Positions 5,117-63,194 of a stretch of 64,000 bases of DNA are shown piece by piece; position 1 is the stretch's first letter; each line of letters begins with the position of its first letter. The stretch covers positions 172,800-236,799 of the forward strand of contig JBDRZL010000001.1 in assembly GCA_039803925.1 (NCBI GenBank). The letters run 5' to 3'. Under the pieces are notes generated by a model. It ran no database searches. It had not been told where the DNA came from and saw only the letters and a list, made by a program, of their open reading frames with translations. Source of the stretch: a candidate division WOR-3 bacterium. Its GTDB lineage: Bacteria > Hydrothermota > Hydrothermia > Hydrothermales > JAJRUZ01. The position numbers and the translations under genes were made by a program.

Positions 5117-5145
5117 TTGAAAATTTTTAAAGGAAGTCTTATAAT
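5117..5145 (+). promoter_or_regulatory. consensus sigma70-type promoter (TTGAAA-N17-TATAAT) for the Lpp-like lipoprotein gene
   Basis: TTGAAA is at 5117-5122, the spacer 5123-5139 is exactly 17 nt, and TATAAT is at 5140-5145. Confidence 0.5.
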
Positions 5146-5171: not shown

Positions 5172-5202
5172 GGGGTCCGAATCCCCTTTTAAAAATAAGG
5201 AG
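5172..5202 (+). promoter_or_regulatory. 5' leader mini-hairpin GGGGTCCGAATCCCC (T-loop-like) followed 10 nt later by SD AAGGAG
   Basis: A 4-bp GC stem with 7-nt loop TCCGAAT spans 5172-5186. The SD is at 5197-5202 and the ATG at 5210. The same arrangement recurs at 24728-24740 and 63148-63160. Confidence 0.45.
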
Positions 5203-5209
5203 TAATTTA

Positions 5210-5485
5210 ATGAAGAAGCTCTTATACATACTACCAATAGCAGGACTTTTATTTATATCCTGCCAGGTCCCTGAAAATATAAAGGCACTACCTGATAAGG
5301 TGAGTGCTCTGGAAACAAAAGTTCAGGAACTTGAGAGTAAAGTTTCTGATCTTGAATCAAGAGTTAATGAATTAAAGACAATGGTAGAAGAGTTAAAACA
5401 GGAAAAAGGGTCAAAAGAAACAAAACCTCAAACTGAGACAAAAGGTGAAGCTAAACCAAAGCTCCCACCAGTAAGGAAAAAATAA
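5210..5485 (+). CDS. Lpp-like coiled-coil lipoprotein (92 aa)
   Basis: It has a lipoprotein signal peptide MKKLLYILPIAGLLFISC. It then has heptad repeats (VSALETKVQELESKVSDLESRVNELKTMVEELK) reminiscent of Braun's lipoprotein. The ORF-track start at 5168 is an N-terminal over-extension, since the ATG at 5210 has a proper SD. Confidence 0.6.
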   Translation: MKKLLYILPIAGLLFISCQVPENIKALPDKVSALETKVQELESKVSDLESRVNELKTMVEELKQEKGSKETKPQTETKGEAKPKLPPVRKK

Positions 5486-6303: not shown

Positions 6304-6334
6304 CCCCCCTCGTAATGAGGGGGGTTTTTATTTT
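6304..6334 (+). terminator. rho-independent terminator
   Basis: A perfect 8-bp GC stem CCCCCCTC/GAGGGGGG with loop GTAAT is followed by TTTTTATTTT. It lies 32 nt after the stop of the 5496-6272 gene. Confidence 0.8.
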
Positions 6335-9744: not shown

Positions 9745-12714
9745 TTAATCTTTTAAAATTTTTTCCGGGTTAAAGAAGGGATTTTCTTCAAATCCAGTCC
9801 GATAAATATCACTTTTTATTCTATTTTTCAAGTCTTCAAATATATATATATAATTTTTAAGAAGAAACTTCACCGCATCGTATCTTTCAATTTTTTTACA
9901 TATCTTTAAAAGTTCTCTTAATATGATAATATGTAAGATAGGTATAGGGTATTTAAAAATTTCTTCAAATAGAAGTTTCAAATCCTCACTTAATCTTGTG
10001 CTTTCCTTAATTTTCTTAATTGCTTTAATGTAAAACTTCTGGTAAAAGGGGAAATTTGGATTTTCTTCTATTTCTCCTATATCTATTTTTTTAAAAAACT
10101 CTTCATTTGTATTAAGAAAAATCGTAAAAAATATATAAGGATCCCTTAGGAATGAAAGATTTAAATCTAAAGTAGTTGCTTCGTTTCCTTCAAGAAGAGA
10201 TTTAATATTCTTAAAATAAAAAATATATGGAAGGTTTTCAAATTTTTGAGAAAAAGATAGTCCTATTTTAAAAGCAGAATTGAATAAATTCTCATTTTTC
10301 AAAAATATACCCAGGAAAGCTTTTATTTTAAGAACATCAATTAAATTTTCAAAGTTCATTTCCATATAAGAAGATTTTTCTGCATCAAGAATAGTGTTTA
10401 AGGAATCTTCAAGATTTCCTGTCCAGAATAAAAGGTCAGAAAGTTTCAATTTAAATTCAGAAAGAAAAACTCCCTTCTTTTTAAGTTCATTACTTGCTCT
10501 TCTCATAAAAATAAGCGAATCAAAGAATAGACCTTCTTTCTGGTAAAGAAAAGACCATGTTATATTAACTTTAGCTGAGGTAATTTCATCTTTAATTTTT
10601 ATATCCCTCAAAAATTTTTTTGCAGATTCAAGACTTCCCCTTTCAATATAAGACTTTGAGAGATAAAGATTAATTTCATTCCATTTTTCATCTTTTTCCT
10701 CTGTCAGAAGTAGTGCTTTGTGAAAATGTTGAATAGATTTTTCAAAATCTTTGGCAAGAAAAGAATATACTCCTTTCAGGAAAAAGTAATCACCCATATC
10801 AAGGGGTTTTACTTTATAGTTTTTTATAACTTCATCATCTATTTTTTCAAAAATAAAATTCGGTATAAAACCCGTCCCTTCTCTTAAAAGTTTTTTTAAA
10901 CTCTTTATACCGTATTTCCATGCTTTATCATATTCTCTCGCCTTTAAAGAGTTTATAAAAACAAAATAAGGGTTCTCTTCAGCCCAGGGACTATCTAAAA
11001 CAGCATCAACAATTTCTTTATGAATCCTTTCTTTAATTAAATCGGGTAATGATTCATAGATTACTTCTCTAACAAGTGGATTAACAAATAAAATTCTATT
11101 GTTTTCAATTCTTAAAATATCATTTAAAATAAGTTTGTCTAAATTTTTTTCTATTTTGTGAGAGAAGTATTCTGAAAGAGGAGAATCAAGGTCAAGTTCA
11201 GTAACAGCACTTAATATTTCCAATAAATCTCTCTCTCCTTCAGTAAGTTCCTGAATCGGTGATAGAACAATACTTATTAAAGAAAGTGGAAGTTCAGGTT
11301 TTTCTTTGATATCTTTTTTCCTTACTTTTAAACTTTTTAAATACTGAGTTATAAATAGAGGGATACCCCCGGTTTTTGGGTGAATTTCAAGAATTATCTC
11401 TGGACTTACATCAGGGAAGTATTTTAATATTAATTCTTTTGTTTCATCATAATCAAAAGCTCTCAAATTGATTCTATAAACATTTTTAGGATCTAAAGAT
11501 ATTGGTAAGACTCTCCCTGTTAAAATAATCAGGGTTTTTTCAATTTTTGATTTTAAAAAGTTTATAAATTCAATTGTAAAAGGGTCAGTTCTATCTATAT
11601 CATCAAAAAATATAATAAGGTTACCTTTTTTATTGCATATAACTCTTAAAAGATCAAATAAAAGATATTTAAGTTTTTCTCTATTAGGTTTTTCTTCTAT
11701 TCTCTCAAAAAAATAAGAAAAGCTTTTTAAAAAAGTTTCAAGATATCTTTTTATAAATTTAAATTCCTCTTTATTTAAGGAATTCTCAATAAATAACCTG
11801 AAAGGGTAGAGCGGTTCGTTAGAATATATATCACTTCCTTTAAGTTTTATAATAAAACCTTTATCTTTTAATTTTTTTAAATAATTTTCTGTAAGAAATG
11901 TTTTTCCAATCCCTGCTTCACCTGTTATTATTACACTTTTAGTTTCTCCCTTTTCCCATTCACCTATAATTGCTTCTAATCTTCCCTTAACATCACTTCT
12001 TTCTATATAGGGAACTTGGAATTCCTCATAAATAATTTCCTTCCTTTCAGAAATCAAAGTATAAACATCAATTCTATCAAATTTTCCTTTTAACTTGATT
12101 TTTCCCATATGTTCAAATTCATAAAAATTCATAGCAGTTTCGTATATATCAACACAAACATATTTTCTGTTATTAAAGAGAGTAGAAAGTCTTGCAGAGG
12201 TATTCACACAATCACCAAGAGCTGTTATAGACATGCTATTTCCTGATTCAATTTCTCCAAAGAATGCCCATCCAGAACATATTCCTATACCATATTCACA
12301 TAAATCTGAAAAATTTTTTTTAATTAACTCTTCAACTTTAAAAGAAAAATCAATAACTTTAAAAATAAGGTCTCTTTCAAATTCATTATAACCAAATATA
12401 AAAAGTCCGCCTTCAAAATGATTGAATTTCTCAAAAAAACCATCATAATTAACACATAATTCATCAATTTTTTTTAAAAAATAGTGGAACTTAGAAATTA
12501 AAAGAGCATTTATTTTTGTTTTCCATTTTAGACTCAGAAAGAAAGAAATAACATATTTTTTTCTAAGATAAATTGCAATTTTTTCTTTATCAGGAACAAT
12601 AACTTTTACATCTTTTAGTTTTAAACCACAATATGTACAAAAGTTATAGATATCTCTAACATAAGATTTACATCTCTTACATTGAATTCTATTTTCAGTT
12701 TCTATCACTTTCAA
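9745..12714 (-). CDS. zinc-ribbon / class III nucleotidyl cyclase-homology domain / STAND (AAA_16) ATPase / TPR-repeat protein
   Basis: An N-terminal CxxC...CxxC ribbon precedes a CHD with GIGICSGWAFFGEIESG and ITALGDCVNTSARL (Asn/Arg motif retained, metal-binding Asp positions replaced). Walker A IITGEAGIGKTFL follows. The C-terminal ~450 aa are TPR-like. Its start overlaps the stop of the upstream HEAT-repeat gene. Confidence 0.65.
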   Translation of the reverse strand: MKVIETENRIQCKRCKSYVRDIYNFCTYCGLKLKDVKVIVPDKEKIAIYLRKKYVISFFLSLKWKTKINALLISKFHYFLKKIDELCVNYDGFFEKFNHFEGGLFIFGYNEFERDLIFKVIDFSFKVEELIKKNFSDLCEYGIGICSGWAFFGEIESGNSMSITALGDCVNTSARLSTLFNNRKYVCVDIYETAMNFYEFEHMGKIKLKGKFDRIDVYTLISERKEIIYEEFQVPYIERSDVKGRLEAIIGEWEKGETKSVIITGEAGIGKTFLTENYLKKLKDKGFIIKLKGSDIYSNEPLYPFRLFIENSLNKEEFKFIKRYLETFLKSFSYFFERIEEKPNREKLKYLLFDLLRVICNKKGNLIIFFDDIDRTDPFTIEFINFLKSKIEKTLIILTGRVLPISLDPKNVYRINLRAFDYDETKELILKYFPDVSPEIILEIHPKTGGIPLFITQYLKSLKVRKKDIKEKPELPLSLISIVLSPIQELTEGERDLLEILSAVTELDLDSPLSEYFSHKIEKNLDKLILNDILRIENNRILFVNPLVREVIYESLPDLIKERIHKEIVDAVLDSPWAEENPYFVFINSLKAREYDKAWKYGIKSLKKLLREGTGFIPNFIFEKIDDEVIKNYKVKPLDMGDYFFLKGVYSFLAKDFEKSIQHFHKALLLTEEKDEKWNEINLYLSKSYIERGSLESAKKFLRDIKIKDEITSAKVNITWSFLYQKEGLFFDSLIFMRRASNELKKKGVFLSEFKLKLSDLLFWTGNLEDSLNTILDAEKSSYMEMNFENLIDVLKIKAFLGIFLKNENLFNSAFKIGLSFSQKFENLPYIFYFKNIKSLLEGNEATTLDLNLSFLRDPYIFFTIFLNTNEEFFKKIDIGEIEENPNFPFYQKFYIKAIKKIKESTRLSEDLKLLFEEIFKYPIPILHIIILRELLKICKKIERYDAVKFLLKNYIYIFEDLKNRIKSDIYRTGFEENPFFNPEKILKD

Positions 12715-15334
12715 ATCTCCTTAATCCCATAGTTGCTGCCAGTTTTACAGAAGAATCAGAATCCTTAATAAGTTCCTCTAAATAACTTTTGATTTTTTCT
12801 GTTTTATATTTTGATAAAACTCTTACTAATTCTGTTCTTATTCCAGAAGGATATTTAGGTTTCTTTAAAAATGTTTTTTCAAATAAAATCTTTTCTATAA
12901 AAGGGTACACCTTTTCAGGTGAATGTTTCATTACAAAATTAAAAGCAGGAATTACAAGTTCGTTAAAATCTTCTTTTTCAATTGTTTCTTTAATAAACTT
13001 AGAGATTACATCCACACTTTTTTCAGTCCCTATTTTTAAAAGTGTTCTTATACATTCTATCTTGACTTCCTTTCCAGGATATTCAATGTAAACCTCAATA
13101 ATATCATCTTCAACTTTTGGATTATTAATTTTTGATAAAGCTCTGAGTACCTCTAATCTTACTATATCCTGACCGGTTTTTAAAAATTTTACTAAAAGAG
13201 GTAAACCTTCTTCATCTTTACTTTCCCCAAGTATAAACACTATATCTCTTTGTGTTTTCCAGTTTTCTTCTTCAAGAGCTTCATAAAATTCCTTCCTATA
13301 ATCTGGTGGAAAAGCTGCAAGAATTTTAGCTATTCTTCTTCTGATAGCAATATTTTCAATTTCTGGAAATATCTCTTTAAGCGCATTAAATCCTTCCTTA
13401 CCTGAAGAAAGAAGTGCCTCTTTCACTTCTATTTCTGTATCTTCATCCCATAGAGCTGTTAGAAGCATCCTTAAGGCAAATTGAGTACCTACTTTTCCAA
13501 GTGCTCTTATTGCCATTTTTTTCTTTGATTCTGAATCAAGTAAATCTCTAAAAGTTTTCTGTATATCTTCAACAATAAAATCTTTCCCCTTTATCTTTGC
13601 AATTTCTACAATTTTTTCAAGACCATCAATATATGAAAAGATAACAGCTGGATGTTCCTCTTCTTGTATTTTTGATTTTATAAGATTTATTAATTTTTCA
13701 AGTGGTCCAAGTTTATCTGACTTTATAAAGGACACTGCTAAAGCAGCAATAGCACTAACAGCTGAACTTCTTTCATTTTCGTCTCCTTTGTTCAGTTTTT
13801 CTAAGAGTGGTTCAAGGACAAGATCCATTTCAGAGGCACCAATTCCCTCTTCAAGTTCCTTTTCCATAAATTTCAATTTCTTTTCACCTGTTATAACAAG
13901 TCTTTTTTCTCTTGTAACTCTTTCAAGCATTTCCAACTCTTTATCCTGATAGGAAATCTCACTCTTAGTGTATACTTTCCTTTTTTCAAGAATATCCTTA
14001 ATTGTATCAGGTACAGTTGTATCTCCTTCTTTTATACCAGATAAAAGAGAAATAAGTTCTTCATCCTTCATTTCCTCAAGAACTTTCCTTATTGATTGGG
14101 CAATTTCCCTGTGTTTTTCTGATTCTTGAAGGAACCTTCTTTTTAAAGAGGGAGATAAAATTTTAAGGATTTGTGAAACAATAAGTGAAAGGCCTGAAAA
14201 TCCTTCTTCTCCATATTTTTCAAGTAAATAATAGGCAACTATTTTTAAAGCAGAAACAATACTTAAAATTTTGGAACTATCGAAATCCTCTTTAAGATCA
14301 ATTCCAACCATTTTTAAAAAGATATCCCTTATTTCCTTTTCTTTTTCTTCATCCTTTAATTCCTCAATTTTATTAAAAATTTTATCAATTTTTTCTTCAA
14401 TTTCAGAACCAGCCCGAACTTCTTCATAAATATTAGGTGAAACAATTCCTTCATAATCTTTTTCTTCTTTAAAAGCACTTACACCTTCTGTTTCAAAGGG
14501 AATTAAAAAACTCGGAATTTTATTCAAAATTTCTTTCCTTTTATCTTCAGGGACAAATGATAAAATATCACTTCTTTTTTCCCTTGGTATTTCAGAAAGA
14601 ATAAGTAAAAAATCACTTTCATCCATAGAAACCATTATCTCTCTGATTTTATTTTTGATTTCTTCATCTTTCAAAAATTCAGACAGGAGATTTTCGCCTC
14701 CTTCCATCATTATTGAAGAAAAGATTTTTGATAACTGAAGAGGATTAATTTTTTTAGCATTTTTGAAAAGATTTTTAGTCTTAGTAAGCATATCTTCTCC
14801 TGGTATTGATTTTATAAGATTTAAAGGATTATCAGTGTTTTCTATTTCTTTCAAAACTGACTCAAGGTCAAACTTTATTTCTTTATCAGTGGTAGATGAG
14901 CTCAAGGTAAACTTCACTTCATTGAATCTGATTTTTTCTATATTTTTTTGAAGCAGAAATTCTGTTGGATCCTGTGTTTCTAAAAATTTTTTTGCCGGAA
15001 GAGTAAAAACCTCAAAAAATCCTTTTATATCTTCTTGGGTAACATCTCTGTCAATTGATACACTCTCAATTTTATATCTTGATAGCTGTTTTGATAAAGA
15101 TAGAATTGCAGGAATTTTACTTATATCCATTCTTGTTTCCTCAAATAGAATTATATTTTCAAAGAAATAAATTGATAATGTTTTGTATTTAGTTGGAAAT
15201 TTTTTTATAACCTCTAAAAACTGTTCTGCTAATCTCGTAAAAGCAGGGTGTCCGGGTGGATACATTTTTGAATAATTTAAACCAACCCCCATTTGTTTTA
15301 AAAGTTCTACTAATAAATTTTCAATTTGCTCCAT
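12695..15334 (-). CDS. HEAT/PBS-lyase-like repeat protein, hypothetical
   Basis: At 879 aa it is alpha-helical and the C-terminal half has repeated HEAT-like units (e.g. NNPKVEDDIIEVYIEYPG..., SSVKLAATMGLRRF). It is translationally coupled to both flanking cyclase-domain genes. Confidence 0.5.
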   Translation of the reverse strand: MEQIENLLVELLKQMGVGLNYSKMYPPGHPAFTRLAEQFLEVIKKFPTKYKTLSIYFFENIILFEETRMDISKIPAILSLSKQLSRYKIESVSIDRDVTQEDIKGFFEVFTLPAKKFLETQDPTEFLLQKNIEKIRFNEVKFTLSSSTTDKEIKFDLESVLKEIENTDNPLNLIKSIPGEDMLTKTKNLFKNAKKINPLQLSKIFSSIMMEGGENLLSEFLKDEEIKNKIREIMVSMDESDFLLILSEIPREKRSDILSFVPEDKRKEILNKIPSFLIPFETEGVSAFKEEKDYEGIVSPNIYEEVRAGSEIEEKIDKIFNKIEELKDEEKEKEIRDIFLKMVGIDLKEDFDSSKILSIVSALKIVAYYLLEKYGEEGFSGLSLIVSQILKILSPSLKRRFLQESEKHREIAQSIRKVLEEMKDEELISLLSGIKEGDTTVPDTIKDILEKRKVYTKSEISYQDKELEMLERVTREKRLVITGEKKLKFMEKELEEGIGASEMDLVLEPLLEKLNKGDENERSSAVSAIAALAVSFIKSDKLGPLEKLINLIKSKIQEEEHPAVIFSYIDGLEKIVEIAKIKGKDFIVEDIQKTFRDLLDSESKKKMAIRALGKVGTQFALRMLLTALWDEDTEIEVKEALLSSGKEGFNALKEIFPEIENIAIRRRIAKILAAFPPDYRKEFYEALEEENWKTQRDIVFILGESKDEEGLPLLVKFLKTGQDIVRLEVLRALSKINNPKVEDDIIEVYIEYPGKEVKIECIRTLLKIGTEKSVDVISKFIKETIEKEDFNELVIPAFNFVMKHSPEKVYPFIEKILFEKTFLKKPKYPSGIRTELVRVLSKYKTEKIKSYLEELIKDSDSSVKLAATMGLRRFESDRN

Positions 15335-18977: not shown

Positions 18978-19973
18978 TTACCCTCCTTTTGTTTGAAAAG
19001 GATATTTTGTATAAACATCGTAAAATTCTAAAATATTTTTTTTATTTTTATGAAGGTAATAACTTCTTATACCAACCATAACAGCATTATCTCCGCAGTA
19101 TTCTAATGGAGGAAATAAAACCTTATCAAAGTTTTCATAAAATATTTCTCTTAGTCTATCATTTGCTGCTACACCCCCTACAACTGAAATTGTTAAATTT
19201 TTTAAATTAAGAACATGTATAGCTTCTTTAACTTTTTCCAGTATATGTTGAAAAACAGTTTCCTGGAAAGAGGCTGCAATATTGGATTTTAAATTTTCAA
19301 ATTCCTCTGGATTTATCTTCTCAATATACCTTATTAATGCAGTTTTTAAACCACTGAAGCTGAAAGTAAAGGGTTTAGTTTGTGGAAGGGGAAATTTGAT
19401 AAAATTTTTATCACCTTTTTTAGCAAGTTCAGAAAGCCTCTTTGCTCCTGGATATTTAAAACCAAAAAGTCTTGCAGCCTTATCAAGACATTCACCTCCT
19501 GCATCATCAAGTGTTCCACCAAGATATTTTATTTCATTTATGTCTTGAAGTAGAAACAGCTCTGTATGCCCTCCTGAAACAAGAAGGGAAAGTAAAGGAA
19601 ATTCTGGTTCTCTATCTATAAAAACAGAAAAAAGATGTGCTTCAAGGTGATCTATTCCGTAAAAGGGAACTTGTAAAGAAGAAGCGAGTGATTTACCAAA
19701 GATATAACCTACAAGGAGAGAGCCTATAAGACCTGGTCCCTGGGTTGCTGCAACTAAATTTATATCTTTTGTATCAATCTTAGCAATTTCAAGGGCAAGT
19801 TTAAGTGATGGGACAATTATTTCCATGTGGGTTCGTGAGGAAAATTCAGGCATTACACCCCCAAACTCAATTCCTGAAATATGAGAGGATAAAATGTGGG
19901 ATTTTACTTTTTTATTTTGTAAAATAGCAACCGAAGTTTCATCACAGGAGGTTTCAAAGGAAAGAATAAACAT
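18978..19973 (-). CDS. tsaD: tRNA N6-adenosine threonylcarbamoyltransferase TsaD
   Basis: The N-terminus is FILSFETSCDETSVAIL. His motifs GIDHLEAH are present. The length is 331 aa. Confidence 0.85.
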   Translation of the reverse strand: MFILSFETSCDETSVAILQNKKVKSHILSSHISGIEFGGVMPEFSSRTHMEIIVPSLKLALEIAKIDTKDINLVAATQGPGLIGSLLVGYIFGKSLASSLQVPFYGIDHLEAHLFSVFIDREPEFPLLSLLVSGGHTELFLLQDINEIKYLGGTLDDAGGECLDKAARLFGFKYPGAKRLSELAKKGDKNFIKFPLPQTKPFTFSFSGLKTALIRYIEKINPEEFENLKSNIAASFQETVFQHILEKVKEAIHVLNLKNLTISVVGGVAANDRLREIFYENFDKVLFPPLEYCGDNAVMVGIRSYYLHKNKKNILEFYDVYTKYPFQTKGG

Positions 19974-20067
19974 TTTTATATATAAAAGTAAAAATTTTAA
20001 AAATCAATATTTAAAATTCCACTGAATTTGAAAATCAATATTTTTTGGCTTATAATTTTTAAAATGC

Positions 20068-21027
20068 ATGTTAATAAATTATCTATTTTTGCAAAATTTC
20101 AGAAAATTTGAAAAGAAAGAATTTTTCTTTAAAGAAGGAGTAAATCTTATTACAGGACCAAATGGAGCAGGGAAAACAACAATTCTTGAAGCAATACACC
20201 TTCTCAGCTATCCGAGAAACTTGAAAGGAGCAAGTAATTCTGAAATTATTAAAAAAGGTAAAGAATTTTCCCTAATCCTCTGTAAGGGAAATTCAAAAAA
20301 TGGAAAATACGAAATAAAACTTGAAATAGAAAAAGATAAAAAAAATCTTTACTTAAATAATAAAAAAGTTCCATCCTATTCCTATGTCTTTAAAAAATTA
20401 CCCACAATTTTTTTTCATTCAAAAAAAGAAATAATATTCTGGAGTAAAAGTGAACTCCTCAGAGAAATAAATTACCTTATCTCCCTTTTGGATAATGAAT
20501 ATTTTAAAATCTTACTTAATTACAACAGGATTCTTGAACAAAGAAATAAATATCTTAAAAATATTAAAGAAAATATAGACCCTTTTAAGAAATTGCTTCA
20601 AGATAATGGAAAAATATTACAGAGTAAACGTATAATATATATTAAAAAAATAGAGGAAGTTATGAAAAACTATTTAAATGTTTTTATTAATTATGAACCT
20701 TCAGTTTTGGATTATGATTTTGAAAAGGAGAAAGAAAAAGGTTTTACTCTTTTTGGTATTTCGAGGGATAAAATTACTTTTTTAAAAGATGGTTTTGAGT
20801 TAAAGACGCAGTGTTCGGAGGGTGAAAAAAGGATTTTTTTGTTTTATTTTTATATTGCTATTGCTGAAATGATGAAAGAAAGTGGAAATTTACCCTTACT
20901 TTTATTAGATGACCCTTTTTCAATTCTTGATTTTAATCTTGTGAAAGATTTTATTGGAAAATGGGAAGGTCAGATTATTATTACATCCCTGAAGGATCTT
21001 GATATAAAAAATAAAATAGTTTTGTAA
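20068..21027 (+). CDS. recF: DNA replication and repair protein RecF
   Basis: The N-terminus is LFLQNFRKFE and Walker A is GPNGAGKTT. A Walker B-like LLLLDDPFSILD is present. It is followed by DUF721 and gyrB. Confidence 0.75.
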   Translation: MLINYLFLQNFRKFEKKEFFFKEGVNLITGPNGAGKTTILEAIHLLSYPRNLKGASNSEIIKKGKEFSLILCKGNSKNGKYEIKLEIEKDKKNLYLNNKKVPSYSYVFKKLPTIFFHSKKEIIFWSKSELLREINYLISLLDNEYFKILLNYNRILEQRNKYLKNIKENIDPFKKLLQDNGKILQSKRIIYIKKIEEVMKNYLNVFINYEPSVLDYDFEKEKEKGFTLFGISRDKITFLKDGFELKTQCSEGEKRIFLFYFYIAIAEMMKESGNLPLLLLDDPFSILDFNLVKDFIGKWEGQIIITSLKDLDIKNKIVL

Positions 21028-24727: not shown

Positions 24728-24740
24728 GGGATTCGAACCC
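24728..24740 (-). promoter_or_regulatory. 5' leader mini-hairpin (minus strand GGGTTCGAATCCC) 10 nt upstream of SD AAGGAGG of the pilin gene
   Basis: This is the same T-loop-like motif and the same spacing to the SD as at 5172-5186 and 63148-63160. Confidence 0.45.
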
Positions 24741-24770: not shown

Positions 24771-24786
24771 TGCAAAATTCATTCCA
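24771..24786 (-). promoter_or_regulatory. sigma54 (-24/-12) promoter candidate for the pilin gene
   Basis: The minus strand reads TGGAATGAATTTTGCA. GG and GC are spaced as in the consensus TGGCAC-N5-TTGCA, with the -12 element TTTGCA. It lies about 70 nt upstream of the pilin ATG. Confidence 0.5.
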
Positions 24787-24828: not shown

Positions 24829-24867
24829 TTTGCATTTTGCAAATGATTTTTGCAATTTGCAAATCAT
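24829..24867. promoter_or_regulatory. repeated or palindromic TTGCAA(A)T motifs, candidate enhancer (bEBP/PilR-like) binding region
   Basis: The minus strand reads ATGATTTGCAAATTGCAAAAATCATTTGCAAAATGCA. It is an imperfect 25-bp inverted repeat (ATGATTT...AAATCAT) containing three TTGCAA cores. It lies 45-95 bp upstream of the sigma54 candidate and overlaps the stop of the upstream gene. Confidence 0.4.
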
Positions 24868-37626: not shown

Positions 37627-40505
37627 CTATTTTTTAAAGTTTTTTTTAAAGAATCTATCTTATTTTTAAAGGGCTCAGGTAGATTACGCATCCTCTCGGT
37701 AAGTTTTATAATCTCTCTCAATTTTTGTGTATCACCTTTCAGATTATATAGGGTCAAAAAGTCCATTATTAAGAAGGGATCAGCAAATCTAAAACTCAAA
37801 GCTTTATTAAAATTCTCCTCTGCTTTATTTAAATCTTTAAGTCCCAAATAACTTTCACCAATCACCCTATAAATCTCAGGAGCCTGAGCTTCTTTTAAAA
37901 TATCCTGAGCCTTCAATAAACCTTTTTCATATTCACCTTTCCTATTATAAAGATCAGCAAGAGTGAGTTTCACTGCAATCCAAGCTCTTTCCTCCTCAGG
38001 TTCACCTGATTTAACATCACCCTGGAAAAGTTCAGAAAATTCAAACTCTTTAATAGCCTTTTCAATTTCTCCAATACTCTGATAATAAAGACCAAGAACT
38101 ATTGCAAGAGAACGATACTGACCAAGTAATCTATCATGAGTTAAATCCTTAAAAACACTTTCATCTTTTTTACCATCTTTCAATATCCCTCTGTATCTAA
38201 ACCTATTATGTAAAAAGTCCTCTGTTTTACTAACATCCATACCTGTTCCAAATGGTGATGTAATTTCCTGTTTGAAAGGTGTAACTCTATAAACCATACC
38301 TTCAAGTAAAAGATAATCTTGAAAATCCCTGTAAGATTTTCTTTCACAGGTCATAGAAAAAAATAAAGGTGGTTTAGGCAATTTGTTTTTACCTTTTTCA
38401 ATTACTTCCTTCATAAATTCTCTTCCATCCCATAAGAAAATTTCAGGTATTGAAACCCCTGTGGGTAATGTTCTTGTTTTCGTATTTTCATTAAATTCAT
38501 AGCCAAATACACCAGCAATAATATCCCTTATCATTATATCTCTCACAAGAACAATATCTTTTTCTGTTCTGAAAGGAATAAGTTTTTTTATTTCATCCTC
38601 TGTAAAATGAATAGGAACTCCCCATCTCTTGAGCTGAATGTTATACCAGTCAGTATTTAAAAGAGAAAGGTTAGCAACAATAACACTCTTCTTATAACCA
38701 AATAAAATCTGTAAAGCCCATAGGGGAAATGTATCATTATCACCGTTTGTAAATACTATTCCACCATCATCAACACAGGAAAGTAAATTATAAGAGTAAT
38801 CTTCAGCAATATAATTTTTACTTCTATCAACTTTATGATAGAAAGCACTTATCTGCCAGATTGGAATAAAAATTGAAAAGATAATAAAGATATATTTTAA
38901 ATAAACACTGAATTTTTCTTTTAAATTTTCAAAAGAAAGTCTTATTATTTCAAAAAGTCCAAATCCAGCATAGAGACCAAAGAAAAAGTATCCAGGAATA
39001 AAAAAGTAATCCCTATCTCTAACCTCTGTAGGAATTGAGTTTAAAAGTTGTAAGAAACTTGGGTTATTTAAATCAAATATTGATAAAACTTCTCTTATTC
39101 TTTGAGAATATAAAAATTTGGGAAACTGCTTTATGAAATTTAGAAAATCTATTAGAGTTGAAGGGTAATTTAAATTTAATTGAACTATTAAACCAAGAGT
39201 TCCTATTATAAAAGCTCCACCAAAAAGAACAAAACTTTTCCAGTCAGAATATATATGCGAAATTATACCTATTATTCCAAGTATTACAATTAAGGGGATA
39301 AACTGCCAGGAAAAATAATAAAAAAATCCCCATATTTGATCTATAAAAGACCAGAATTGATTATAAACAGGAGTTGAAAAAAACTCACCTTGTCTTACAT
39401 TACTTGTCCTTCTTGGATAAATATTCATAGGTTCGTATTGTTTCCTTGATAAAACATCCCAGAAAGATTGCCATGTTTTTGGTTCAACCTGATTTATTGG
39501 AGTATCAAATCTTGACCTTATCAAAAGATAAAATTCAGGTGTAACTCCAATAATTATAAAAATTAAAGCAAAACCCCTTGCATCAAGAAAGAGTTTTGTA
39601 TATATGAAAGTTATAAGTAATAAAAAGATTGTGGAAACAAAAATTAAAATTTTCCACTGCTGAAATATTGAAACCAAGGACAAAATAAATAGAATAAAAT
39701 AAATTATTTCAAAAGAATTAAAAAGAAATTTTTTATTATGCTTTTTCCATATGGAAGTATAAGAAAATAAAGAACCTGTAATTATAAAAAGAAGAAGAGC
39801 CTTCAAACTGAAAGGCTCATATGTTGCCCTTAAAGCTCCTGCAAGAAGCAAAAAAATCCCTATACTGGATAAAAATTCTATATTAAAAATTTCTTCTTTT
39901 TTGATAACTGCAATGAAAATAAGCAAAACAGGAATTATAATAAGAGAAAGTAAATGAATTCCAGAACTTAAAGATAATAAGTAAAAAGCTGTTATAATAT
40001 ACCTAAGGGAATCATTTTTATCTTTTTTCTCCCACCAGAGAAAAAGTAAATACACTGAAAGAGTAATAAATAAGGTTGAAGGAACATAAGTCTCAGCTTC
40101 TATTCCACTCCACCAGGTTGTAAAGGTAAAGGGTGCACATAAAGAACCCATAAAAGCTGAGAAATGCTTTAAAATATCAGGTAGCTTTTTAGAAACCCTG
40201 TTAAAGATTTTATATAAAAGTAAATAGCCAATTCCTGCTGAAAATGCTCCTGAAAGAATAGCAGCAAGAGTAATTTTCTGGACTACATTTAAAAAGGGTA
40301 TAGGGAGCAGAGAAAAGAATCTCCCTACAATAACATAAAAAGGTGTTCCTGGAGGATGAGGTATTCCAAGAATCCAGGAAGTTGCCAAAAATTCACCCAC
40401 ATCCCAGAAAACAATTGTTGGAGCCGTTGTTTTAAGATAAATAACAAAAGTTATTATAAAAGATAAAGAGAAAAAAATTTTTTTTGTTAAATTTTTATTT
40501 TCCAT
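37623..40505 (-). CDS. large polytopic membrane protein with C-terminal TPR repeats (GT-C / DUF2723-like glycosyltransferase candidate)
   Basis: At 960 aa it has more than 12 predicted TM helices. The N-terminal loop reads WDVGEF...GIPHPPGTPFY. The C-terminal ~150 aa are TPR-like. Confidence 0.45.
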   Translation of the reverse strand: MENKNLTKKIFFSLSFIITFVIYLKTTAPTIVFWDVGEFLATSWILGIPHPPGTPFYVIVGRFFSLLPIPFLNVVQKITLAAILSGAFSAGIGYLLLYKIFNRVSKKLPDILKHFSAFMGSLCAPFTFTTWWSGIEAETYVPSTLFITLSVYLLFLWWEKKDKNDSLRYIITAFYLLSLSSGIHLLSLIIIPVLLIFIAVIKKEEIFNIEFLSSIGIFLLLAGALRATYEPFSLKALLLFIITGSLFSYTSIWKKHNKKFLFNSFEIIYFILFILSLVSIFQQWKILIFVSTIFLLLITFIYTKLFLDARGFALIFIIIGVTPEFYLLIRSRFDTPINQVEPKTWQSFWDVLSRKQYEPMNIYPRRTSNVRQGEFFSTPVYNQFWSFIDQIWGFFYYFSWQFIPLIVILGIIGIISHIYSDWKSFVLFGGAFIIGTLGLIVQLNLNYPSTLIDFLNFIKQFPKFLYSQRIREVLSIFDLNNPSFLQLLNSIPTEVRDRDYFFIPGYFFFGLYAGFGLFEIIRLSFENLKEKFSVYLKYIFIIFSIFIPIWQISAFYHKVDRSKNYIAEDYSYNLLSCVDDGGIVFTNGDNDTFPLWALQILFGYKKSVIVANLSLLNTDWYNIQLKRWGVPIHFTEDEIKKLIPFRTEKDIVLVRDIMIRDIIAGVFGYEFNENTKTRTLPTGVSIPEIFLWDGREFMKEVIEKGKNKLPKPPLFFSMTCERKSYRDFQDYLLLEGMVYRVTPFKQEITSPFGTGMDVSKTEDFLHNRFRYRGILKDGKKDESVFKDLTHDRLLGQYRSLAIVLGLYYQSIGEIEKAIKEFEFSELFQGDVKSGEPEEERAWIAVKLTLADLYNRKGEYEKGLLKAQDILKEAQAPEIYRVIGESYLGLKDLNKAEENFNKALSFRFADPFLIMDFLTLYNLKGDTQKLREIIKLTERMRNLPEPFKNKIDSLKKTLKNR

Positions 40506-43155
40506 AATGTTCCTCTACAAGGTTTTTATCTTCTTCTTCAATTACAGCATGTGCTGCTGATAATCTTGCAATAGGAACCCTAAAAGGTGAACAGGAAACA
40601 TAAGTGAGACCTATTCTATGACAGAACTTCACTGACTCAGGGTCCCCTCCGTGTTCTCCGCAAATTCCTATTTTTAAATTTGGATTTGCTTTTTTACCTT
40701 TTTCAACTCCAATTTTCATAAACTCACCAACACCTTCTTGATCAAGAGTTTTAAAGGGATCATCTTTTAAAATTTTTTTATCAATATAATAGGGCAAAAA
40801 CTTTCCTATATCATCTCTTGAAAAACCAAAAACTGTTTGTGTCAGATCATTGGTTCCAAAGGAGAAAAATTCAGCAACCTGTGCTATTTCATCTGCTGTT
40901 ATACATGCTCTCGGTATTTCAATCATTGTTCCAACTTTGTAATCAATCTTGATACCTTCCTTTTCCATAACTTCCTTTGCAACCCTATCCACAGTTTCCT
41001 TCTGTAAAACTAACTCTTCTTTTATACCTACAAGTGGAATCATAACTTCAGGTATTGCTTTTATTCCTTCCTTTATTGCCTTAGCTGCTGCTTCAAAAAT
41101 TGCCCTTGCTTGCATTTCAGTAATTTCTGGATAGGTTATACCAAGTCTACAACCCCTGTGACCAAGCATTGGGTTCATTTCCTTTAAACTTTCTGCAATC
41201 TTCTTTATTTCCTTAGCAGTTTTTCCAGTTCTTTTTGCTAATTTTCTTATTGACGCTTCATCTTTTGGTAAGAATTCATGTAAAGGAGGATCAAGCGTTC
41301 TAATAGTTACAGGATAACCGTCCATTTCCTTGAAAATTAAATAAAAATCCTCTCTCTGAAGAGGTAAAAGCTTTTCCAAAGCTCTTTTTCTCTCTTCTTC
41401 ATTTTCAGCAAGGATCATTTCCTGCATTGTGTATATTCTTTCTCCTTCAAAAAACATATGCTCTGTTCTGCATAAACCTATACCCTCTGCTCCAAATTCC
41501 CTTGCCTTCCTTGCATCACGAGGAGTATCTGCATTTGCTCTTACTCCTAATCTTCTTATTTTATCTGCAAATTTTAAAAGCTCTTCAAGTTCAGGAAAAA
41601 TTTCAGGTTCAATAAGATCAGCCTTTCCTTCATAGACTTTTCCAGTATTTCCATCAATGCTTATATAATCACCCTCTCTCAAAATTTTTCCATTAACTTC
41701 CATAAATTTACCTTTTTCATCAACATGAAGGGCTTCACAACCAACAACACATGGTTTTCCCATTCCCCTTGCTACAACTGCTGCATGTGAAGTCATACCT
41801 CCCCTTGCTGTCAAAATACCTTTTGCCCTAACCATCCCATGTATATCATCAGGAGAAGTTTCAACTCTTACAAGTATAACAGGTTCTCCTTTTTCAGCCA
41901 TTTCCATTGCATCGTCGGCTGTAAAATAAATTTTTCCTACTGCTGCTCCCGGAGATGCGGGAAGTCCAACTGCAATTGCTGAATTTTTCTTTTCAAATTC
42001 AGGTGAAATTTGCGGATGTAAAAGCTTTTCAAGGTCTTCTGGTGAAACCCTTTTAAGAGCTGTTTTTTCATCAATTATTCCTTCTTTAACCATACTTACA
42101 GCAATCTTAACTTGAGCTCGTGGTGTTCTTTTTCCCACTCTTGTTTGAAGAAAGTAAACCTTACCTTTTTCAACTGTAAATTCCATATCCTGCATATCCT
42201 TATAATGTCTTTCAAGTTTTTCAAAAATTTCCACTAATTGATTATAAATTTCAGGTTTTCTATGTTTTAATTCTGAAAGTGGAAGAGGAGTCCTTATTCC
42301 TGCTACAACATCTTCACCCTGAGCATTAAACAAAAACTCACCAAAAACTTCCTTTTCTCCTGTTGAAGGGTTCCTTGAAAAAGCAACTCCTGTTCCTGAA
42401 TCTTCACCCATATTTCCAAAAACCATTGCTTGAACATTACATGCAGTTCCCCAGTCATCGGGTATTTTGTATATTCTCCTGTATTCAATTGCTCTTTTAT
42501 TATTCCATGACTCAAAAACTGCAATAATTGCTTTCCATAACTGATCATATGGATCCTGTGGAAAATCTATTTTTTTCTCCTCTTTTACAAGTTTTTTAAA
42601 GCTTTCTACAACTTCTTTCCAGTCCTCAGCTTTTAATTCATTATCATATTTAACATTTTTTTCTCTTTTTTTCTCCTCTATTATTTCCTCAAATTTTTTC
42701 CTGTCTATGCCTAAAACAATATCTGAAAACATCATAATAAACCTTCTATAGGAATCATAGGCAAACCTTTCATCTTTTGTTTTTTCTGCAAGTCCCTTTA
42801 CCGTTTCATCGTTAAGACCAAGATTTAAAACTGTATCCATCATTCCTGGCATTGAAGCCCTTGCACCTGACCTCACAGAAACAAGAAGAGGATTCTCAGG
42901 GTCTCCAAATTTTTTTCCTGTTCTTTTTTCAAGAAGCCTTAAAGCATTCTCTACTTCTTCTTTTAAACCTTCAGGGAGTTTACCCTCTTTAAAGTAATAT
43001 ACACAGGCTTCAGTTGATATTGTAAATCCGGGCGGAACACTTATTCCTATTCTTGTCATTTCATGAAGATTTGCACCTTTTCCCCCCAAAAGGTCTTTCA
43101 TCTGAGCATTTCCTTCTGCTTGATTATCTCCAAAAGAATAAACAAACTTTTTCAT
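40495..43155 (-). CDS. ppdK: pyruvate, phosphate dikinase
   Basis: It is 886 aa. The N-terminus is FGDNQAEGNAQMKDLLGGKGANLHEM. The phosphohistidine domain reads GGMTSHAAVVARGMGKPCVVG. A C-terminal PEP-utilising domain follows. Confidence 0.9.
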   Translation of the reverse strand: MKKFVYSFGDNQAEGNAQMKDLLGGKGANLHEMTRIGISVPPGFTISTEACVYYFKEGKLPEGLKEEVENALRLLEKRTGKKFGDPENPLLVSVRSGARASMPGMMDTVLNLGLNDETVKGLAEKTKDERFAYDSYRRFIMMFSDIVLGIDRKKFEEIIEEKKREKNVKYDNELKAEDWKEVVESFKKLVKEEKKIDFPQDPYDQLWKAIIAVFESWNNKRAIEYRRIYKIPDDWGTACNVQAMVFGNMGEDSGTGVAFSRNPSTGEKEVFGEFLFNAQGEDVVAGIRTPLPLSELKHRKPEIYNQLVEIFEKLERHYKDMQDMEFTVEKGKVYFLQTRVGKRTPRAQVKIAVSMVKEGIIDEKTALKRVSPEDLEKLLHPQISPEFEKKNSAIAVGLPASPGAAVGKIYFTADDAMEMAEKGEPVILVRVETSPDDIHGMVRAKGILTARGGMTSHAAVVARGMGKPCVVGCEALHVDEKGKFMEVNGKILREGDYISIDGNTGKVYEGKADLIEPEIFPELEELLKFADKIRRLGVRANADTPRDARKAREFGAEGIGLCRTEHMFFEGERIYTMQEMILAENEEERKRALEKLLPLQREDFYLIFKEMDGYPVTIRTLDPPLHEFLPKDEASIRKLAKRTGKTAKEIKKIAESLKEMNPMLGHRGCRLGITYPEITEMQARAIFEAAAKAIKEGIKAIPEVMIPLVGIKEELVLQKETVDRVAKEVMEKEGIKIDYKVGTMIEIPRACITADEIAQVAEFFSFGTNDLTQTVFGFSRDDIGKFLPYYIDKKILKDDPFKTLDQEGVGEFMKIGVEKGKKANPNLKIGICGEHGGDPESVKFCHRIGLTYVSCSPFRVPIARLSAAHAVIEEEDKNLVEEHYGK

Positions 43156-43174: not shown

Positions 43175-43191
43175 TTCGGAGTTGAACCGAA
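43175..43191 (-). promoter_or_regulatory. leader hairpin variant (minus strand TTCGG-TTCAACT-CCGAA) abutting SD AAGGA of ppdK
   Basis: It is a 5-bp stem with a 7-nt T-loop-like loop. It lies 20 nt upstream of the ppdK ATG and is related to the GGTTCGAATCC motif. Confidence 0.3.
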
Positions 43192-47812: not shown

Positions 47813-47847
47813 ATTTAAAATAAAATAGAGATAAAATATATAAGATA

Positions 47848-47874
47848 GGGATTTGAACCCTTTGATAAATCAAA
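47848..47874 (-). promoter_or_regulatory. leader motif variant GGGTTCAAATCCC (minus strand) adjacent to the perfect palindrome TTTGATAAATCAAA
   Basis: GGGATTTGAACCC occupies 47848-47860 on the plus strand, 36 nt upstream of the isochorismatase-family gene ATG. The palindrome at 47861-47874 overlaps the stop of the upstream small ORF. Confidence 0.3.
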
Positions 47875-48073
47875 CAGATTTCAACTTATCCTTTATTGGC
47901 TTTAAAAATTCCTCCGCATTCTTTAAATAGGGATTAACTTTTAATGCTTTTTCTATAATTTTTTTTCTTTCCTCCTCTGTTTGAGCCTTTAAATATTTTT
48001 CTCTCAATTTTTTTATTTTCCATTTTCTGTGTTTTTTTCGATTTAATTCAGTTTCTTTTATTCTTCCTTTCAT
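47870..48073 (-). CDS. small highly basic hypothetical protein (67 aa)
   Basis: It is a K/R/E-rich ORF occupying the gap between PBP1A and the isochorismatase-family gene. I see no recognisable family, and it may not be expressed. Confidence 0.3.
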   Translation of the reverse strand: MKGRIKETELNRKKHRKWKIKKLREKYLKAQTEEERKKIIEKALKVNPYLKNAEEFLKPIKDKLKSV

Positions 48074-51423: not shown

Positions 51424-52115
51424 TTACTTATAAGTGATTCCCAGTCTTCAAGAAATCTTTTAAGCCCTATATCTGTTAAAGGATGTTTTAACATTTTATC
51501 AAGAACTTCTGGGGGAACAGTTACAATATCAGCTCCAGTAAGTGAAGCTTCTATCACATGAATTGGATGCCTTACACTTGCTACAAGGAGTTCAGCATCA
51601 AAATCATAGATTGAAAAAACTTGTGAAAGAACTCTCACAACTTCCATTCCTTCGTTTGAAATATCATCAAGCCTTCCTATGAAAGGTGATATATACCTTG
51701 CACCAGCTTTTACTGAAAGTAAACCCTGTGAAGGTGAAAAAATAAGGGTCATATTAACATTAATTCCCTCTGAAGAAAGCTTTTTTGTTGCCTTTAAACC
51801 TTCTTCTCCAAAAGGTACTTTTACAACAATATGTTTATGAACCTTTGACAATTCCTTTCCTTCTTTAACCATTCCATCAGAATCAGTGGCAATTACTTCT
51901 GCTGAAACAGGTCCATCCACTATTTCACATATTTCTTTTAATATTTCCTTACCCTTTTCAAAAAGCTCTCTTTTATCCTTAGCTTTAAAATCTGGATAAA
52001 GTCTTTTAATTTCCTTTGAAAGAAGACTTGGATTTGTGGTTGCTCCATCAATTATTCCAAGTAATTTAAATTTTTTAAGTTCTTCAAGATTTGAACTATC
52101 AAGAAAAATTTTCAT
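51420..52115 (-). CDS. tal: transaldolase / fructose-6-phosphate aldolase (short form)
   Basis: Motifs IDGATTNPSLL and VVKVPFGEEGLKA (Schiff-base Lys) are present. It is 231 aa. Confidence 0.8.
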   Translation of the reverse strand: MKIFLDSSNLEELKKFKLLGIIDGATTNPSLLSKEIKRLYPDFKAKDKRELFEKGKEILKEICEIVDGPVSAEVIATDSDGMVKEGKELSKVHKHIVVKVPFGEEGLKATKKLSSEGINVNMTLIFSPSQGLLSVKAGARYISPFIGRLDDISNEGMEVVRVLSQVFSIYDFDAELLVASVRHPIHVIEASLTGADIVTVPPEVLDKMLKHPLTDIGLKRFLEDWESLISK

Positions 52116-53427
52116 TTCTTATTTCTCCTTCCTTAAAAGGATTGGAACCTTTTTTAGTAAAAATTTTAATTGAAAAATATATAAAAATTAAAGCAGAAAT
52201 AAAACTTAATATGTTAATTAAAAACAGTAAAAAAATTATTTCATTGTTTGATTTAATTATAACATAAGGAATTGTCAAAATCAAAAGCCACATAAGTAAT
52301 ATATTAAAAACAAAATTTTCTCTCTGAATTGCAAAAAATATCCTTGAAAAAAATCTTGTTAAAAGATGAAGTAAAAGAGAAAGGGAGAGCAATAAAAATT
52401 CTGATGTGTAAAAAGTAAATTTATTTTTTGGGAAAAACAAATAAAGAAAGGTTTTCCCTCCGAATATTACAAGAATTGTAAAAGCTAAAACTGATGTAAA
52501 AATTAAAATAAGTGAATAAAAAATTGTTTTGAAAAATTTTTTTCTTTTACCTTCATAATAAGAACTTGCCACATGGGGATAAACTGGAACAAAATAGGAA
52601 TTGAAAAATAACCTTACTGACTGAAAAATTGAAATTTCGGCGGTTAAATTACCAATTAAAGTATCAGAGATATTCTTAATTTTCATAAGTATTATGGGAT
52701 AATTGTAAAAACCTTGGAAAACTGTATTGGAAAAACTCATTGAAAAAATGCCTTCTTTTAAAAAATTGAAATTTGCTTTAAATCTAAAACCTTTTTTTAA
52801 GTAAATAAAATATAAAACAAAGAAAAGAAAATTTGAAAATTCAGAAATAATGTATGGGATTATGAAAATGGGGATTTTATCAATTCCCTTTAAAAAGAAT
52901 AAAAAACCAAAAATTAAAAATATTAAGCCTCTAATAAAAGTAAGTAAACTGAAAAGGTAAAAAAGTTTTTTTCCGAGAAGAATACCCCTACCTATTAATG
53001 AGATGGTTGAAAAAAAATGAGCTAAAAAGGCACATAGAAAAAGGAAAAAACTGTTATTAAACAATTTTTTTAAAAGCAAATCTTTAAAAACAAAGAAAAA
53101 AATAAAAGAAAAAATAAAGGTCAAAAAAACATAAGTAAAAGTTTCATCAAGTAAATCACTGAGCTTTTTATATTCATTTTTAGCTTTCAATTCAGTTATT
53201 TTTCTTGTTAAATAGTCCCTAAATCCTGAACCAAGAAAAAAGGAAGAAAAGGTATAGAAAGAATAAAAAATACCAAGTACTCCTACTCCTTCAGCGCTCA
53301 CAATTTTGCCTACAAAGGATAAATAAAGAAAATAAAATACAGAATTTGAAAAAAGTCCAAAGGTTGACCATACTGTTCCACCAATTAGTCCTTTTGTGAA
53401 TAAAATTTTTTGTAAGATTTCCTTCAA
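52099..53427 (-). CDS. polysaccharide/oligosaccharide flippase-like membrane protein (MOP superfamily, Wzx/MurJ-like)
   Basis: It is 442 aa with about 12 to 14 TM helices. No catalytic motifs are evident, so this is a topology-based call. Confidence 0.4.
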   Translation of the reverse strand: MKEILQKILFTKGLIGGTVWSTFGLFSNSVFYFLYLSFVGKIVSAEGVGVLGIFYSFYTFSSFFLGSGFRDYLTRKITELKAKNEYKKLSDLLDETFTYVFLTFIFSFIFFFVFKDLLLKKLFNNSFFLFLCAFLAHFFSTISLIGRGILLGKKLFYLFSLLTFIRGLIFLIFGFLFFLKGIDKIPIFIIPYIISEFSNFLFFVLYFIYLKKGFRFKANFNFLKEGIFSMSFSNTVFQGFYNYPIILMKIKNISDTLIGNLTAEISIFQSVRLFFNSYFVPVYPHVASSYYEGKRKKFFKTIFYSLILIFTSVLAFTILVIFGGKTFLYLFFPKNKFTFYTSEFLLLSLSLLLHLLTRFFSRIFFAIQRENFVFNILLMWLLILTIPYVIIKSNNEIIFLLFLINILSFISALIFIYFSIKIFTKKGSNPFKEGEIRNENFS

Positions 53428-62471: not shown

Positions 62472-62493
62472 TTTATTCTATTAAACTATATTA

Positions 62494-63126: not shown

Positions 63127-63147
63127 ATGTCCCTCCTTTTTTATTAA

Positions 63148-63160: not shown

Positions 63161-63194
63161 AAATTATAATTAATAATTTTTAGGTCTATTAATT

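Follow-up and report, generated by a model that had tools for sequence, protein, structure and literature searches.

The T-loop, which is marked by a U at loop position 1, an A at position 5 and a closing Watson-Crick pair, is a motif of tRNA, RNase P, T-box stem I, riboswitches and rRNA, and in tRNA its consensus reads U54-U55-C56-R57-A58-N59-Y60 on a G53-C61 pair. Several described systems bring comparable hairpins into mRNAs. The mRNA targets of TRUB1/Pus4/TruB and of the 1-methyladenosine (m1A) enzyme TRMT6/61A share a closing G-C pair and a 7-nucleotide (nt) loop UUCNANN, the consensus of the TRUB1/Pus4/TruB targets being GUUCNANNC, and TruB acts on GUUC sites of bacterial mRNAs (PMC13062092, PMC13236023). 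The thrS operator of E. coli places a tRNA-arm mimic directly upstream of the ribosome-binding site, while plant mitochondrial t-elements and tRNA punctuation represent partial tRNA mimicry within mRNAs at gene borders. Short leader hairpins before the strong ribosome-binding sites of abundant envelope proteins are known from ompA hp1, the Bacillus 5' stem-loops and Stab-SD. Here we describe a small T-arm-like hairpin in the gene leaders of a 64,000-nt stretch of DNA from a candidate division WOR-3 bacterium (GenBank assembly GCA_039803925.1, contig JBDRZL010000001.1, positions 172,800 to 236,799; hereafter, the window). Judged from its sequence, this hairpin is probably an undescribed RNA signal in the gene expression of the WOR-3 / Hydrothermales lineage.

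A preliminary description of the window had reported three such hairpins, each followed by 8-10 nt, a strong Shine-Dalgarno (SD) sequence and an ATG. Direct reading found all three in their places (the third at 63147-63159), with gaps to the SD of 10, 10 and 8 nt at the Lpp-like, pilin and cytochrome genes, respectively. The cytochrome copy, with the stem AGG/CCT, fits the pattern proposed for them, GGKTYCGAATCCC, only with a mismatch. A scan for G-C-closed 7-nt loops of T-loop type added three further sites, which brings the window total to six hairpins, every one on the sense strand:

5172-5186, + strand: T-arm-like hairpin ggggTCCGAATcccc (ggggUCCGAAUcccc) in the leader of the Lpp-like gene (19.8 bits); SD AAGGAG at 5197-5202, ATG at 5210
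5197-5485, + strand: SD and coding sequence of the Lpp-like coiled-coil lipoprotein (91 aa, lipobox FISC)
24728-24740, - strand: T-arm-like hairpin gggTTCGAATccc (gggUUCGAAUccc) in the leader of the type IV pilin gene (23.9 bits); SD AAGGAGG at 24717-24711, ATG at 24703
63147-63159, - strand: T-arm-like hairpin aggTTCGAATcct (aggUUCGAAUccu) in the leader of the tetrahaem cytochrome c gene (23.7 bits); SD AAGGAGG at 63138-63132, ATG at 63126
52135-52153, - strand: T-arm-like hairpin aaaaggUUCCAAUccuuuu (aaaaggTTCCAATcctttt) before the transaldolase gene (24.7 bits); ATG at 52115
47847-47861, - strand: T-arm-like hairpin agggUUCAAAUcccu (agggTTCAAATccct) before an isochorismatase-family gene (27.2 bits); ATG at 47812
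43175-43191, - strand: T-arm-like hairpin uucggUUCAACUccgaa (ttcggTTCAACTccgaa) between a GGDEF gene and the gene of pyruvate phosphate dikinase (PPDK) (21.8 bits); ATG at 43155

A covariance model built from all sites found exactly these six in the window, at 19.8-27.2 bits, and the next match scored 14.6 bits. The pilin product carries an N_methyl motif and the cytochrome product four CXXCH motifs, and the Lpp-like product matches the Pfam family LPP with a score under the family cut-off. The isochorismatase-family and PPDK genes have no recognisable SD, and their hairpins lie 38 and 24 nt before the ATG, respectively; the transaldolase hairpin falls within the last codons, at the 3' end, of the preceding open reading frame (ORF; 52099-53427). 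In this compact window, with a G+C content of 29.9%, about 17 intergenic gaps precede a gene, and five of them hold a hairpin. The proposed limitation to envelope and extracellular genes had to be abandoned, as transaldolase, PPDK, the isochorismatase-family enzyme and a ribonucleotide reductase of the relatives carry the hairpin too.

Conservation of the element was then compared among relatives. Proteins identical to those of the window were found in the metagenome-assembled genomes GCA_039803845.1, GCA_039803985.1 and GCA_039803965.1, and close homologues carry the names candidate division WOR-3 or Candidatus Hydrothermales. Homologues of the cytochrome, the transaldolase and the HEAT-repeat protein encoded between the Lpp and pilin genes led to syntenic loci in five related genomes, and a metagenome scan with an alignment of the 525-aa neighbour of the cytochrome gave three loci, two of them on contigs already in the set. 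The loci and their sources are L086 and L105 (GCA_039630575.1), L088 (GCA_024277525.1), L089 (JGI 3300002481), L093 (ERZ650669), L095, L101 and L104 (JGI Ga0209426_1000201) and L106 (ERZ27245891). The hairpin was present at the orthologous place in every close relative examined:

Cytochrome gene, L086: gggTTCAAGTccc
Cytochrome gene, L088: gggTTCAATCcct
Cytochrome gene, L089: agggTCCAAATccct
Cytochrome gene, L101: tgggTTCGACTccca
Pilin gene, L105: gggTTCAAATccc
Pilin gene, L106: ggggTTCAAATccct
Lpp-like gene, L104: gggTTCAAATccc
Lpp-like gene, L105: gggTTCAATTccc
Lpp-like gene, L106: gggTTCAAATccc
Transaldolase gene, L093: gggTTCAATTcct
Transaldolase gene, L095: gggTTCAATTccc
Isochorismatase-family gene, L093: aggTTCAATTccc
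Isochorismatase-family gene, L095: aaggTTCAATCcctt
PPDK gene, L093: partial, the locus stopping with CGGTTCAAAT at the matching place

Two further families carry the hairpin in the relatives, namely a ribonucleotide reductase with an intein (L088, hairpin at 19463-19483) and a DUF5362 gene for a 57-aa product (L104, hairpin at 19219-19231). In alignments of the upstream regions, pairwise identity was 74-95% over the 13-nt core versus 37-49% over the remainder. The motif was lacking, however, in the more distant relatives compared (L091, L097 and L099; 62 kb altogether), both at the orthologous sites of the cytochrome (L091) and transaldolase (L097 and L099) genes and in the whole of these loci, where the top model match, of 17.9 bits, lies antisense within an ORF. 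Because the motif is absent from these three loci, the element is, by sequence comparison, confined to a sub-clade. Searched with the covariance model, neither the window nor the clade and outgroup loci yielded additional copies. The view of the hairpin as a lineage-specific leader element was thus borne out: it is kept at orthologous places despite diverged flanks, on the sense strand only, and is absent in distant relatives.

The 20 distinct sites form a gap-free alignment, with a core of 13 nt that consists of a 3-base-pair (bp) stem and a 7-nt loop U-Y-C-N-A-N-Y. All sites share the two closing G-C pairs as well as U1, C3 and A5 of the loop; pyrimidines fill loop positions 2 and 7 (nearly invariant), and position 4 is a purine in 18/20 sites. 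The hairpins therefore carry the sequence signature of a T-loop (U1, A5, a closing Watson-Crick pair and a 7-nt loop), and their loop consensus equals tRNA T-loop positions 54-60 with the 53:61 pair; equivalents of U54 and A58 are present at every site. The consensus GUUCNANNC is matched by 18 of the 20 sites, and the two others carry UCC in place of UUC. The third stem pair is GC in 12 sites, AU in four, GU in two, CG in one and mismatched in one. It switches within the cytochrome, transaldolase and isochorismatase families, in one case via a G·U intermediate, and the covariation score was beaten by only 4 of 500 shuffles. Since the outer pairs (4-6) form in only about half of the sites, which is near the chance expectation for A/T-rich flanks, the conserved unit is 3 bp plus 7 nt. 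Nearest-neighbour energies predict a stability of -0.5 to -5.5 kcal/mol at 37 °C, and of about zero or positive at 60-75 °C for most sites; the lineage is known mainly from hot environments, and its sole isolate, strain sy37, is thermophilic (PMC12285271, PMC12542636). None of the RNAfold z-scores of the leaders was significant, the element being too small for energy-based detection. For the cytochrome (63121-63175, - strand) and transaldolase (52110-52165, - strand) leaders, the minimum-energy fold from RNAfold pairs the 3' arm UCCUU with the SD AAGGA. This model pairing may represent an alternative, SD-masking conformation and is not general among the sites.

Counts of the motif were compared with chance and with control sequences. 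The pattern GGKTYCGAATCC, with at most one mismatch, matched five times in the window against 0.46 expected, and none of 100 shuffles attained five. Base composition predicts one GGTYCNANYCC in about 448 kb of strand; of the clade sequence, the first 224 kb contained 15 non-tRNA copies, 14 of which were in sense orientation upstream of a start codon. A hairpin census over about 250 kb of clade sequence, covering both strands, gave 21 non-tRNA matches, and 20 of these were sense and upstream of a start codon. Among 688 G-N7-C hairpins (at least 3 bp), 21 had loops of T-loop type versus 3.2 expected. The control was 1.39 Mb of unrelated loci (39% G+C), including 80 loci of distant PPDK homologues, and the hairpin, ribosome-binding site and ATG arrangement occurred in none of them. 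Of the GGTYCNANYCC matches in these control loci, eight were tRNAs that ARAGORN called and one was a probable archaeal tRNA; the 12 others were chance matches within ORFs, none with an SD and start codon behind.

These counts bear on the explanation that the copies arose by chance, from tRNA genes in decay or as a dispersed repeat. Fragments of tRNA would be expected to contain the 11-mer GGTTCGAATCC, as no T-arm sequence is commoner. Nevertheless, the copies have no tRNA body, no 5-bp T-stem and no shared flanks, and their orthologous conservation, enrichment and positional bias are far above chance; we regard this explanation as having practically no weight. ARAGORN found no tRNA in the window, in agreement with the earlier statement that a tRNA body is missing, and this result, together with the short stem and the unalike flanks, rules out both a tRNA gene or remnant and the scattered 3' halves of degraded tRNA genes that had been named as the refuting alternative. 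A REP/MITE-like repeat (repetitive extragenic palindrome or miniature inverted-repeat transposable element) was likewise rejected, as the copies are all sense, lie 23-38 nt from a start codon and have unrelated flanks.

Several other identities were tried and rejected. An intrinsic terminator, for which a G+C-rich stem of at least 5 bp and a U-tract after it was the criterion, is ruled out, as there is no terminator-like site at the Lpp and cytochrome hairpins; the terminator scan flags only the PPDK hairpin, on both strands and as a borderline case. A classical strong terminator does occur at 6304-6333 (+ strand; CCCCCCTC gtaat GAGGGGGG TTTTT), behind a 258-aa gene downstream of the Lpp-like gene, and shows how a real terminator looks in this genome, unlike the T-loop hairpins. 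In one relative, the hairpin of the L088 ribonucleotide reductase has a 7-bp stem followed by TTTT, and its gene (19558-20642) holds an intein with a LAGLIDADG domain. Rfam gave no match at gathering score in the window, and none at the hairpin sites up to E = 5. An effect of the restriction site TTCGAA does not fit, as the relatives have TTCAAAT; the window contains five TTCGAA sites. No reading frame is conserved that would make a leader peptide spanning the hairpin. A tertiary contact from the T-loop to the SD was dismissed as a general mechanism, because there are sites without an SD or any downstream G.

We next compared the spacing of the hairpin to start codons and to promoters. From the end of the loop to the start codon there are 23-32 nt in 20/21 sites and 38 nt in one (median 27), over eight gene families. 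Sites without a recognisable SD, namely the window isochorismatase and PPDK genes, the L095 isochorismatase gene and the L104 DUF5362 gene, obey this spacing too, and a strong SD, where present, begins 11-19 nt past the loop. The distance from the hairpin to the predicted promoter or transcription start varies from about 0 to 28 nt. By sequence, the constant feature is the distance to the start codon and not that to the promoter. Two promoter-like sites could be placed in the window:

5117-5145, + strand: sigma-70-type promoter-like site TTGAAA-17-TATAAT, with 11/12 consensus matches and a -10 box that ends 26 nt before the Lpp hairpin
24772-24786, - strand: sigma-54-type -24/-12 promoter TGGAAT-N5-TTGC, read from the sequence, upstream of the pilin hairpin

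The first of these would put the Lpp hairpin at about +20 of the transcript, and the L105 Lpp-like gene has a similar TTGAAA-N17-TATAAT that ends 14 nt before its hairpin. The sigma-54-type box is kept as TGGAAC-N5-TTGC in L105 and L106, and from its GC to the pilin hairpin there are 31 nt in the window, 27 in L105 and 36 in L106. With the usual -24/-12 geometry, the pilin hairpin would stand at about +16 to +25, the predicted start lying about 20 nt ahead of it in the window. Upstream of this promoter, four TTGCAAA/GCAAA repeats (24831-24863, - strand) resemble a site for an enhancer-binding protein. Two weaker sigma-70 candidates precede the cytochrome hairpin of the window, from which their ends are 3 nt (TATAAT) and 35 nt away. 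A good -10 box also stands close to the hairpin of the L088 cytochrome gene and to those of the L093 and L095 isochorismatase genes; its end is 5-7 nt from the hairpin, which would thereby come to lie at about +1. All of these promoter positions are indicative only, as promoter-like matches are near chance level in such A+T-rich DNA. The earlier report of near-consensus sigma-70 promoters at two of the three genes stands for the Lpp-like gene, whereas the cytochrome gene has weaker candidates and the pilin gene a sigma-54-type site.

The promoter positions bear on two further explanations. A plain thermodynamic 5' stem-loop of ompA type, which would guard against 5'-end-dependent decay and in which the loop sequence would be meaningless, finds some support in the -10 boxes of L088, L093 and L095, which could bring the hairpin to the extreme 5' end, and in the TATAAT 3 nt upstream of the window cytochrome hairpin. 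Such a clamp is improbable, however, since only 3 bp are supported, the stability is marginal and the selected loop sequence is not needed by a clamp; moreover, 15-24 unpaired nt would precede the pilin hairpin and about 20 the Lpp hairpin. A stable ompA-type stem was accordingly rejected on energies and on the number of supported pairs, and the ompA/lpp-type 5'-terminal stabilising stem-loop suggested at first is disfavoured by the 3 bp seen in covariation, the marginal stability and the predicted position of the pilin hairpin inside the transcript. The motif might otherwise work in DNA, either as an operator or as a promoter element of another kind, such as a -10-like TTCAAAT box with G/C on its flanks. 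Genes whose leaders measure about 20 nt would likewise have such a promoter element in a fixed orientation and at a fixed start distance, but most sites have sigma-70-like or sigma-54-like promoters upstream that are themselves conserved, the A at position 2 of a -10 hexamer is missing, and compensatory changes that include G·U-type intermediates agree with pairing in RNA and not with the recognition of DNA by a protein. We consider a role in DNA very improbable.

Strand specificity, compensatory changes with G·U intermediates, a place downstream of conserved promoters and start-codon-tied spacing together indicate, at the level of sequence, that the element acts in RNA, at or next to the ribosome-binding region. 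The explanation that we tentatively favour is a clade-specific cis-acting RNA leader element that mimics the T-arm, is recognised by a factor and has a positive role. The 13-nt mimic G-G-N / U-Y-C-N-A-N-Y / N-C-C would be transcribed within the mRNA leaders and be centred about 30 nt before the start codon, which would correspond to the 5' edge of the region covered by the 30S subunit during initiation. At this distance from the start, structured leaders also dock on the 30S platform, and the thrS operator has its place there. The loop would fold as a T-loop, with a reverse-Hoogsteen pair U1-A5 upon the closing G-C pair, and a T-arm-recognising partner would hold or read it, the candidates being TruB, TrmA/TrmFO, TrmI or the ribosomal platform. 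Besides the U1-A5 pair, the T-loop fold comprises a U-turn and leaves an intercalation gap between loop positions 4 and 5. Once bound, the element could set the ribosome access and the leader stability of the downstream gene; our best guess is a positive effect, in which the ribosome-binding site would be kept open and insulated and the leader protected. If the hairpin formed in the cytochrome and transaldolase leaders, the SD would be freed, which would suit a positive or switching role. We infer how the loop folds, what the partner is and in which direction the effect goes; as the stem is too weak alone, the hairpin would need the ribosome or a T-arm-binding factor to recognise it. E. coli TruB modifies a hairpin GUUCNANNC with 3 bp and a 7-nt loop at about 0.3x the tRNA rate in vitro, and TruB/TRUB1/Pus4-type enzymes tolerate short stems of 2-3 bp (PMC13492117).

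Several points weigh against this explanation. Isolated stem-loops are bound weakly by E. coli TruB, with a dissociation constant (KD) > 1 µM (PMC13492117), and two sites (the window Lpp and L089 cytochrome hairpins) have C at the U55-equivalent position, so that the conserved function cannot lie in pseudouridylation at that position. No common theme is obvious among the genes, and their high expression is assumed. The pairing of the SD with the 3' arm predicted by RNAfold makes a negative or switching role equally possible. In addition, orthologous copies are non-independent, the independent count being eight gene families (all sense), and the census covers about 0.3 Mb of the clade as comparative evidence.

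The same position before the start codon could serve a translational operator, in which the T-arm mimic would bind a T-arm-binding protein that competes with the 30S subunit, as ThrRS does at thrS; the expression of the regulon would then be negatively coupled to the free pool of this protein, and hence to the tRNA maturation load. A place just upstream of the ribosome-binding region at a fixed start-codon distance suits steric competition, the selected loop positions are the T-loop-defining ones, and the weak stem implies a partner. On the other hand, the hairpin genes stand outside tRNA metabolism and possess strong SDs and promoters, the analysis yielded no candidate protein, and mature tRNAs would form a vast competitor pool unless the factor reads only free T-loops. 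Overall, such an operator appears unlikely, but we place it second after the favoured element and ahead of a processing signal.

An RNA processing determinant, with the hairpin guiding RNase P, RNase Z or an endonuclease of RNase E/Y type as in t-elements, is a doubtful candidate to which we give little credence. The mRNAs would then begin or end at the hairpin, which would uncouple downstream from upstream cistrons. This is in line with the transaldolase and PPDK sites, which are intercistronic or inside the end of the upstream ORF, and with the variable distance from the predicted 5' end, as cleavage would make the hairpin 5'-terminal. Model substrates of RNase P and RNase Z, however, require an acceptor-plus-T helix of about 12 bp, whereas the element has only 3 conserved bp, without an acceptor-stem-like helix or a 3' NCCA; and where the -10 box lies 5-7 nt ahead of the hairpin (L088, L093 and L095), cleavage would be unneeded.

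The neighbourhoods of the hairpin genes provided some further observations. A 67-aa ORF (47870-48073, - strand), which belongs to DUF6800 in relatives, stops 8 nt before the isochorismatase hairpin and is kept in L093 and L095. The best match of the PPDK (40495-43155, - strand) has 62% identity (Clostridium, Roseiflexaceae and DPANN archaea) among the matches listed, from species-representative genomes. Behind the tetrahaem cytochrome gene runs a conserved operon (57628-63126, - strand), also seen in L086, L088, L089 and L091, which encodes a 525-aa protein without a Pfam family, three more multihaem cytochromes and an NHL/SGL-repeat protein, and which may be an electron-transfer module of the lineage. 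Between the Lpp-like and pilin genes, a gene pair (9745-15334, - strand) encodes an 879-aa HEAT-repeat protein and a 989-aa AAA/ATPase_2-type protein, in an order kept in L104, L105 and L106.

With the hairpin, the poorly known lineage WOR-3 / Hydrothermales, which has one cultured thermophile, strain sy37 (PMC12285271), would gain a first candidate for a cis-regulatory RNA motif. A speculative proposal, against which the chances stand clearly, is that the hairpin serves as an address label, which would be docked on the ribosome or read by the T-arm machinery (TruB, TrmA/TrmFO, TrmI or an unknown reader). If so, a set of presumably abundant mRNAs would be modified or bound at a fixed place beside the ribosome-binding site, which would be the first conserved, positionally fixed T-arm mimic in regulon-wide bacterial translational control and would link tRNA maturation status to the expression of pili, lipoprotein, cytochromes and central metabolism; at SD-less sites, the label might help to recruit the ribosome. 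Reading of the hairpin by a T-arm enzyme or the ribosome would also make tRNA mimicry a general expression signal and would show, in a natural setting, an epitranscriptomic or RNA-protein site that is conserved in the mRNA leaders of bacteria. The 13-nt module might further be useful as a leader part for expression in thermophiles. Our literature search found no T-arm mimic at a fixed place in bacterial leaders; the work found on T-loop or T-arm mimics concerned eukaryotic m1A and pseudouridine, viral tRNA-like structures and general TruB mRNA mapping.

Set beside the known systems, the element differs from each in a definite way. Known mRNA sites of TruB/TRUB1 type are scattered and mostly coding or in 3' UTRs (untranslated regions), and no positionally conserved element beside the ribosome-binding sites of many genes is reported among them, whereas the hairpin is fixed there, with a putative TruB-type target at 18/20 sites by sequence. 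The thrS operator mimics the anticodon arm, is bound by ThrRS and autoregulates its own gene; the present mimic, known at the level of sequence, is of the T-arm and precedes at least eight unrelated genes, and because these do not encode tRNA-binding proteins, classical thrS-type autoregulation does not apply. Hairpins of ompA type depend on an extreme 5' position or on stability and have no loop requirement, in contrast to the 3-bp stem, conserved loop and variable 5' distance seen here. The t-elements combine an acceptor stem with a T-arm and serve as cleavage sites for RNase P or RNase Z, while here there is only a 3-bp T-stem and loop. Finally, known T-loops are parts of large folded RNAs, in which they dock with a partner base or elbow, whereas this putative T-loop, recognised by its sequence signature, sits in an isolated leader mini-hairpin. 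Leader hairpins as such are common; what sets the WOR-3 / Hydrothermales element apart is that the conserved positions are those of the T-loop, that it has been selected before many unrelated genes and that its distance is tied to the start codon.

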